Origin: Patescibacteria group bacterium
GTDB lineage: Bacteria; Patescibacteriota; Minisyncoccia; Phycocordibacterales; JACOZG01
NCBI GenBank assembly: GCA_038064435.1
Contig: JBBTTC010000001.1
Span: 3,170-67,169 of the forward strand
Length of the DNA stretch: 64,000 nt
Direction of reading: 5' to 3'
A program made the position numbers and the translations under genes. The notes beneath the pieces are model-generated. The model saw only the letters and a program-made list of their open reading frames with translations. It ran no database searches and had not been told where the DNA came from. Of the stretch, positions 12,749 through 12,975 are shown piece by piece. The number at the start of each line of letters is the position of its first letter. The stretch's first letter is position 1.

Positions 12749-12975
12749 TTTAGGATTGACACATTTGTTATGGATTGCTAGCGTGTTGGAAGTCTCGTTC
12801 GTTAAAATGCCTGCGATGATTTGAAGGTGATTCCCAAAAGGGATGGGACTGCTGTTCACCGCCGGTACATTATTGGGTTGAGGGTGATTTTATGATCGTT
12901 TCCAAATCGGAATTGACGGGAGCTTCACTCTCAAGGCCTGCCTTGATCACAAATCTCGGCGGGCTTTTTTTGTGC
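12749..12975 (+). mobile_element. ORF-less 227-bp paralogue of the IS110-like element's non-coding module (MITE-like or stand-alone sRNA gene), flanked by 10-bp direct repeat ttgacttcgg
   Basis: Promoter ttgaca-17-tagcgt (12756-12784). Module 1 is about 80% identical to 10288-10326. Core 12855-12889 equals 11771-11805. Terminator gcctgcc/ggcgggc (12936-12964) plus ttttttt. Perfect direct repeats ttgacttcgg at 12739-12748 and 12976-12985. Confidence 0.5.

Follow-up and report, generated by a model that had tools for sequence, protein, structure and literature searches.

What is the 227-bp segment that lies, without an open reading frame, at positions 12749-12975 of the DNA analysed here (the window, meaning the whole stretch of 64,000 nucleotides)? 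This segment, copy B, is a paralogue of sequences on either side of a 421-aa ORF at 10450-11715, a locus that we call copy A. A first-pass annotation had offered two readings of it: a MITE-like derivative of an IS110-like element, or an intact ncRNA gene of which copy A would be the version interrupted by an IS110-type insertion. We consider it probable, at about 80%, that copy B is a two-unit stem-loop TIGR mini-array, separately transcribed, which provides guides for a nearby TasR protein with a dead RuvC domain.

Results

The neighbouring ORF is predicted to encode a TasR with an inactive RuvC

The public annotation of the 421-aa protein is IS110 transposase, and Transposase_20 was the only Pfam match to the ORF. 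A profile of 29 homologues matched the TIGR-TasR structure PDB 9MTY at E=1.2e-19 (residues 238-367), compared with 1.4e-3 for the IS621 recombinase. When the AlphaFold2 model of the protein (pLDDT 88.9) was searched with Foldseek, chains A and B of 9MTY came out on top (E=1.3e-10), followed by IS621 (E=2e-8) and ISCro4, and then by TasH (9VZX). Inactivation of RuvC was judged from the first catalytic position: in the model, strand beta-1 covers residues 4-8 and ends in Arg8, within the N-terminal motif I-G-I-R-H-R, and position 8 is Arg, Gln or Pro in 29/29 aligned homologues and acidic in none. In the profile alignment, an Asp-Gly of TasR stands opposite the Ser-Gly of IS621, which we take to be the catalytic serine site. 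By profile, fold match and Arg8, the IS110-like identity previously given to the ORF does not hold; as judged from sequence and model, tasR (10450-11715, plus strand) encodes a TIGR-associated protein that belongs to the CPR clade, its RuvC inactive, and that has a coiled coil and, at the C-terminus, an RNA-binding domain of the Nop type.

Homologues of this protein were found in Parcubacteria/CPR only and are 40-66% identical to it. Their clusters are nearly all single-member and sit on few contigs, with the protein essentially single-copy per cluster and contig. One homologue, 44% identical, lies on the contig (locus L016) that Faure et al. 2025 (PMC12045711) name as an example of TasR with inactivated RuvC, Candidatus Buchananbacteria RIFCSPHIGHO2_02_FULL_56_16 scaffold_15087; the same paper describes the dead-RuvC TasR clade of the CPR as 'associated with stem arrays'. 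According to Xu et al. 2026 (bioRxiv 10.64898/2026.09.09.750476), who report structures of two dead TasR proteins, CsTasR carries R8 at the first catalytic position, and dead TasR proteins are RNA-guided transcriptional repressors that read an 18-bp site, with 9 nt per spacer on opposite strands.

Copies A and B carry units with the layout of stem-loop tigRNAs

On the plus strand, copy A begins with the tasR promoter (10272-10300; TTGACG, then TGC-TAGGGT) and a putative tigRNA unit in the tasR 5' UTR, SL5' (10330-10385; GGACGGGGGA / TTGATGGGTAC / TTCC TTAGC GGGA / TTTTGACACGCT / TCCCCCGTTT). Two further units follow 3' of tasR, A1 (11725-11782; GCCGGTAGTGA / TT TGGAGGTGC T / TCAC GAAA GTGA / TT TCCCACGTC T / TCACCGCCGGC) and A2, with a 15-bp outer stem (11789-11855; ...GGGTGA / TT ACATACACT T / TTCC ATACC GGAA / TT GAAAGGAAT T / TCACTCC...). 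A possible degenerate third unit at 11868-11925, with one loop of ~22 nt and recognised partly by direct reading of the sequence, is missing from copy B and accounts for ~70 nt more in copy A. The tasR/A1-A2 transcript would end at a terminator at 11938-11975. Between the two tigRNA clusters, at 12076-12649 on the same strand, lie a tRNA-Asp gene (12076-12153) and HicB/HicA (12193-12649), and we count this tRNA gene and toxin-antitoxin pair in the gap between copy B and tasR against the mini-array reading.

Copy B, also on the plus strand, opens with a promoter (12756-12784) paralogous to the tasR promoter, with a -35 box TTGACA at 12756-12761, a 17-nt spacer and an extended -10 element TGC-TAGCGT at 12776-12784. 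The promoter TTGACA-17-TAGCGT recognised earlier is thereby confirmed, with the qualification that its -10 box TAGCGT (12779-12784) is weak; it matches at 3/6 positions only, so that the scan tool left the promoter unlisted, and this too counts against the mini-array reading. The preceding TGC makes it an extended -10, and copy A shares the TGCTAG motif, as does the closest relative (L001). The leader (12785-12808, 'module 1' of the first-pass annotation) is homologous to the tasR leader at 10301-10326. It is followed by the candidate units B1 (12809-12866; GCCTGCGATGA / TT TGAAGGTGA T / TCCC AAAA GGGA / TG GGACTGCTG T / TCACCGCCGGT) and B2 (12878-12934; TTGAGGGTGA / TT TTATGATCG T / TTCC AAATC GGAA / TT GACGGGAGC T / TCACTCTCAA), and by an intrinsic terminator (12935-12971; GGCCTGCC...GGCGGGC then T7). 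The 15-nt loop of this terminator exceeds the limit of the scan tool and the hairpin was seen by folding instead; hairpin and T7 together bear out the claim that copy B has its own terminator. The absence of an ORF was likewise verified, no ORF being common to copies A and B, and the ends of copy B carry no terminal inverted repeats.

The five units of the window have a common layout, in which an outer stem encloses two 12-nt strands separated by a 4-bp hairpin whose loop has 4-5 nt, each 12-nt strand holding a 9-nt variable spacer; SL5' deviates in that its first strand has 11 nt. Outer stems are paired at 8-10 of 10 positions and inner stems at 4/4, as counted on a manual segmentation (a MAFFT alignment of six units had the inner stems out of register). 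All ten pairs of the B2 outer stem are formed. In B1 the 10 pairs nearest the loops comprise 8 that are formed and 2 mismatches, and RNAfold favours another fold for the B1 region; we count both points against the mini-array reading. The inner hairpin covaries: A1 has TCAC/GTGA, B1 has TCCC/GGGA and the orthologous L001 unit has TTCC/GGGA. GA or AA stands before each of the ten spacers (10/10), and U and then U or C after it; these flanking nucleotides give the pseudo-two-fold symmetry expected of an RNA bound by a protein dimer. [quoted passage not shown]

A scan of both strands of the 64-kb window with pseudo-symmetric grammars returned SL5', A1, A2 and B2 alone, against a mean of 0.1 in ten shuffles. 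B1 was missed because of its two outer-stem mismatches, a further point against the mini-array reading. These grammars superseded a loose scan for dual-loop hairpins, which was too unspecific (~9 strict hits per shuffle). That loose scan alone picked up a stem-loop at 17676-17728 with 12+12-nt internal loops and an outer stem paired at 8/8, which is probably a chance match. At gathering and E-value thresholds, Rfam gave no family for the units, the only matches being the tRNA-Asp and two weak chance matches inside the ORF.

Same-strand units flank tas genes across the family

The 80 homologous loci (L001-L080) were scanned over 1.5 kb either side of the ORF with a strict pseudo-symmetric grammar that permitted loops of 11-13 nt. 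It found 358 units on the tas strand, in 68/80 loci; the other strand yielded 1 and shuffled sequence 2. In 96% of these units the loops measure exactly 12 nt, and across the family loops open with G (92%), then A (75-79%); since loop positions 3-11 are compositionally variable, they point to 9-nt spacers. Most of the 80 loci have same-strand repeats common to both flanks of the ORF, often as arrays, and units on both sides of tas are the family norm, as also in Xu et al. 2026 (bioRxiv 10.64898/2026.09.09.750476). Three loci (L058, L016, L040) have tandem super-units of 285-495 nt; every super-unit contains at least one stem-loop built as stem / G-N10-T / hairpin / G-N10-T / stem, in which the stems are conserved and the loops vary. 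An nhmmer search with copy B and both copy A flanks gave no match in the 80 homologous loci, suggesting that the units are conserved between genomes in layout only and not in sequence. A linkage of the ORF family to tRNA genes was also considered and was rejected, tRNA genes not being consistently adjacent.

Copy B looks like a deleted copy of the tasR locus with diverged spacers

The two copies align in two ungapped blocks, 12756-12798 with 10272-10314 (77% identical) and 12800-12934 with 11716-11850 (76% identical), the second of which begins right after the tasR stop codon. The junction, directly past that stop codon, falls at a GTTRAAA microhomology. The copy B leader tracks the tasR leader as far as GTTCGTT, and beyond it copy B agrees at 24/31 positions with the sequence 3' of tasR, versus 16/31 with the tasR 5' UTR (by-eye count). 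Because of this pattern of leader and then 3' flank, copy B looks, from its sequence, like an A-like copy from which SL5', tasR with its ribosome-binding site, and the degenerate third unit have been lost. The description of copy B as an ORF-less derivative of copy A, with promoter and leader kept and joined to sequence 3' of the ORF, is thus supported, as is the near-identity of a core that is 34/35 identical between the copies and has only these two occurrences in the 64-kb window. Differences between the copies are unevenly spread: the scaffold is 69/80 (86%) identical and the 10-nt loop cores 20/40 (50%; Fisher p=4e-5). A guide RNA under selection would be expected to keep its stems while its spacers diverge, and this is the pattern seen.

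The alternative in which copy B is an intact ncRNA gene survives in part. Copy B is most likely intact and, we infer, separately transcribed; copy A is not an insertion-interrupted gene, since tas genes of this family normally lie between stem-loop tigRNA units. Two similar segments of ~17 nt, at 10338-10354 and 11734-11750, had been proposed to mark the insertion; they turn out to be paralogous parts of SL5' and A1, running in each case from the closing GA through spacer A into the beginning of the inner hairpin.

A related genome lacks the whole 2.7-kb block

Copy B is also covered by fourteen other contigs from the population of the window, and over this segment their sequence matches the window exactly or almost exactly. 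All contigs with identical RRM or HicA proteins are clonal copies of the window except one, L089, from a related genome in which the GatB DNA is ~85% identical (by eye) and the RRM region 98%. In L089, GatB and a terminator are followed by a single TTGACTTCGG and then by the RRM gene (L089:294-520, set against window 10125-12985). Homology to the window returns only at 12960, and L089 is without the whole 2.7-kb block at 10272-12975, that is, tasR with its units, tRNA-Asp, HicBA and copy B. At both junctions of the block, as compared between L089 and the window, a terminator T-tail is followed by GC and TTGAC. L096, which is more distantly related, has 143 nt between GatB and the RRM gene; in L112 two small ORFs separate these genes, and TasR is encoded in none of 80 RRM loci. 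The missing block in L089, the closeness of GatB and the RRM gene in L096 and the lack of TasR at RRM loci together indicate that the block is a derived insertion in the lineage of the window.

A sister genome had been suggested as a test, the question being whether a single 10-mer precedes the RRM gene without the 227-bp insert: the single TTGACTTCGG is there in L089, while what is missing is the entire 2.7-kb block and not just 227 bp. No contig lacking copy B alone was found among those with identical RRM or HicA proteins, and a metagenome scan with the 21-mer of the RRM promoter gave 0 hits.

Some further observations concern the block and its surroundings. The tRNA-Asp(GTC) at 12076-12153, inside the inserted block, is 78 nt long with its anticodon at position 36 and scores 47.6 bits in Rfam; if the genome has no other tRNA-Asp, the block must be indispensable. 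Several independent assemblies break at 11963, in the copy A terminator (L085, L092, L093), or at 11074, inside tasR (L083, L090); possible causes are assemblers misled by the A/B repeat, or strain variants whose upstream arrangement differs. The GatB-RRM intergenic region of L089 (L089:327-400) holds a 10-bp GC-rich stem, GGGTGCGGCC / GGCCGCACCC, around ~55 nt; nothing in the window corresponds to it, and it could be a further small RNA.

A perfect 10-bp repeat flanks copy B

The perfect 10-bp repeat noticed at 12739-12748 and 12976-12985 is real. Its sequence, TTGACTTCGG, has 3 matches in the 64-kb window compared with 0.18 expected, and 0/100 shuffles reach 3; the third match, at 20517 on the minus strand, lies in coding-like sequence. 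No usable -10 box follows the left repeat (12739-12748). The right one serves as the -35 box of the RRM gene promoter, as had been suggested; it opens the element TTGACT-17-TAGTAT (12976-13004, plus strand), which is also present in L089. A longer duplication around the 10-mer was sought by local alignment and rejected (p=0.3-0.77), leaving a repeat of exactly 10 bp. This repeat has no place in the mini-array model and is counted against it.

We think it unlikely that the repeat records a true insertion, in which a TIGR module complete with promoter, two tigRNAs and terminator was spread by a transposition-like process or by repair of a staggered break. If it did, tasR, tRNA-Asp and HicBA would have come with another insertion at that 10-mer. 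No account of how TIGR arrays gain units was found in the accessible parts of Faure et al. 2025 (PMC12045711) or Xu et al. 2026 (bioRxiv 10.64898/2026.09.09.750476).

Downstream of the repeat, the RRM 5' UTR of ~105 nt (window 13005-13108; L089:541-644) is 98% identical between the two genomes although their GatB genes have diverged. It holds complementary cgtcgg ... ccgacg and may be an autoregulatory leader of the RNA-binding protein.

Spacer matches in the window

All five spacer pairs were searched in either geometry, allowing gaps of 0-2 and as many as 3 mismatches, and gave chance-level or self matches only. The 64-kb window holds no 18-bp composite target with ≤2 mismatches for any of them, which we also count against the mini-array reading.

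Spacer A of A1 (TGGAGGTGC) and spacer A of B1 (TGAAGGTGA) resemble Shine-Dalgarno sequences. In the first loop strand of B1 (12819-12830), GAAGGTGAT (spacer A and closing T) agrees at 9/9 positions with 10443-10451, where tasR has its ribosome-binding site and start; the second B1 spacer does not fit that site. A near-identical loop core, TTGGAGGTGT, occurs in L058. As a signal, Shine-Dalgarno-like spacers were considered and set aside: they outnumber their reverse complements 36 to 14, but the A/G-rich composition of the spacers explains the excess.

Discussion

A possible function for copy B

We observe in copy B the anatomy of a two-unit array and paralogy to copy A, next to a gene of the TasR family in which units and tas are associated family-wide; its transcription, processing, loading onto TasR and use in repression are inferred here by analogy with characterised relatives. 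Copy B would be transcribed from its sigma-70-type promoter into an RNA of ~185 nt ending at the intrinsic terminator, and B1 and B2 would then be excised. A dimer of TasR, whose gene lies 1 kb upstream, could bind each unit, and the two spacers of the unit would pair with opposite strands of a DNA site of ~18 bp. With RuvC inactive, the complex would be expected to stay on the DNA and repress transcription instead of cutting. At the DNA level, copy B may have arisen from an A-like copy minus SL5', tasR and the third unit, and since its spacers have diverged, we propose that it adds two guide specificities.

Could copy B instead be a decaying, non-functional remnant of a duplicated tasR locus from which the ORF was lost, a pseudo-array now out of use? 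The weakened outer stem of B1 (8/10 pairs), the failure of B1 in the grammar scan, an identity to copy A of only 76-77% and the lack of a target in the 64-kb window would all fit such decay. Yet the differences between the copies are concentrated in the spacers, with stems, promoter and terminator kept (p=4e-5), the B2 outer stem is fully paired (10/10), and the inner hairpin of B1 was altered by a compensatory pair, so we regard a remnant as improbable. That copy B is identical or nearly so in 14 population contigs points the same way, weakly, because the population is clonal. A role tied to the RRM gene, in which copy B would be some unrelated small RNA or would act in cis, for example as insulator or terminator, would draw on its position directly upstream of the RRM promoter, where its terminator would shield the gene from upstream transcription. 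But L089 and L096 have the RRM gene under a similar promoter without copy B, and copy B is clearly paralogous to the units flanking tasR; we give this role very little credence.

The reading of copy B as a MITE-like non-autonomous element, inserted in TTGACTTCGG with a 10-bp target-site duplication and mobilised in trans by an IS110-like or other transposase, fares poorly for other reasons. It would account for the perfect direct repeat on either side, which is well above chance, for the single 10-mer of the sister contig L089 and for the resemblance of copy B to an internal-deletion derivative of copy A. However, the closest match of the neighbouring protein is TasR, it has no acidic residue at the first RuvC catalytic position and Asp-Gly opposite the IS621 Ser-Gly, and as a dead-RuvC TasR rather than an IS110 transposase it lends no support to mobilisation by an IS110 enzyme. 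The protein is, moreover, essentially single-copy per cluster and contig, the core occurs just twice in 64 kb, copy B lacks terminal inverted repeats, and L089 is without a composite block of 2.7 kb rather than 227 bp. Nor are IS110 elements known to make 10-bp duplications. With a TasR protein in place of a transposase and no terminal inverted repeats, the proposal of a MITE-like derivative of an IS110-like element is not sustained, and we consider any such element very improbable.

Reading copy B as a two-unit TIGR mini-array has consequences beyond this locus. TIGR-Tas identity corrects the public annotation as an IS110 transposase, under which the flanking RNA modules had been taken for transposon ends. 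It documents a case of tigRNA genes that are not contiguous with tas, forming what would be an independent transcription unit past a tRNA gene and a toxin-antitoxin pair, and array finders limited to the immediate neighbourhood of tas could miss such units. [quoted passage not shown]

Comparison with known systems

IS110/IS1111 elements with their bridge RNA or seekRNA (Durrant 2024; Hiraizumi 2024; Siddiquee 2024) encode a distant homologue of the TasR protein, as reflected in Pfam Transposase_20 and the Foldseek match to IS621, and resemble the system described here in having a guide RNA whose internal loops read two DNA strands, and an ncRNA encoded beside the ORF. They differ in that TasR here is without the catalytic Asp and, presumably, the catalytic Ser, the gene is single-copy, several one-loop units take the place of one two-loop bridge RNA, and neither element ends nor a circle junction are present. 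The solo ssr9 sRNA of ISPpu9 in Pseudomonas putida, as described in PMC12288879, is a parallel to copy B in one respect, being an ncRNA of an IS110-type ORF that also occurs as ORF-less copies elsewhere in the genome; ISPpu9, however, is a genuine transposon, present in multiple copies and inserting into REP sequences, whereas the protein here is no transposase. Box C/D snoRNAs and sRNAs with Nop5 share the dual-guide RNA, the pseudo-two-fold symmetry, a predicted Nop-domain dimer and short conserved, box-like nucleotides flanking each guide, but no fibrillarin or L7Ae partner was seen here, and the characterised TIGR relatives target DNA and not rRNA.

The nearest likeness is to the stem-loop TIGR systems of CPR dead-TasR proteins, including CsTasR (Faure 2025; Xu 2026). 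Both have the RuvC-like domain, coiled coil, Nop domain and a non-acidic position 8, units built of a palindromic outer stem and two spacers of ~9-10 nt with a short hairpin between them, same-strand units upstream and downstream of tas, and a Parcubacteria/CPR host. The window differs in its loop strands, which open with UU in 9/10 cases where the family usually has GA, and in the length of its protein, 421 aa compared with 547 aa for CsTasR. Copy B itself differs in being a two-unit cluster with its own promoter and terminator, ~1 kb from tasR past tRNA-Asp and HicBA, and in its perfect 10-bp flanking repeat. Most likely, the locus is an ordinary further example of TIGR-Tas, a system described in 2025-2026; what is unusual here is that copy B stands apart from tasR, that it is flanked by a 10-bp repeat, and that the whole locus is an indel between sister genomes.
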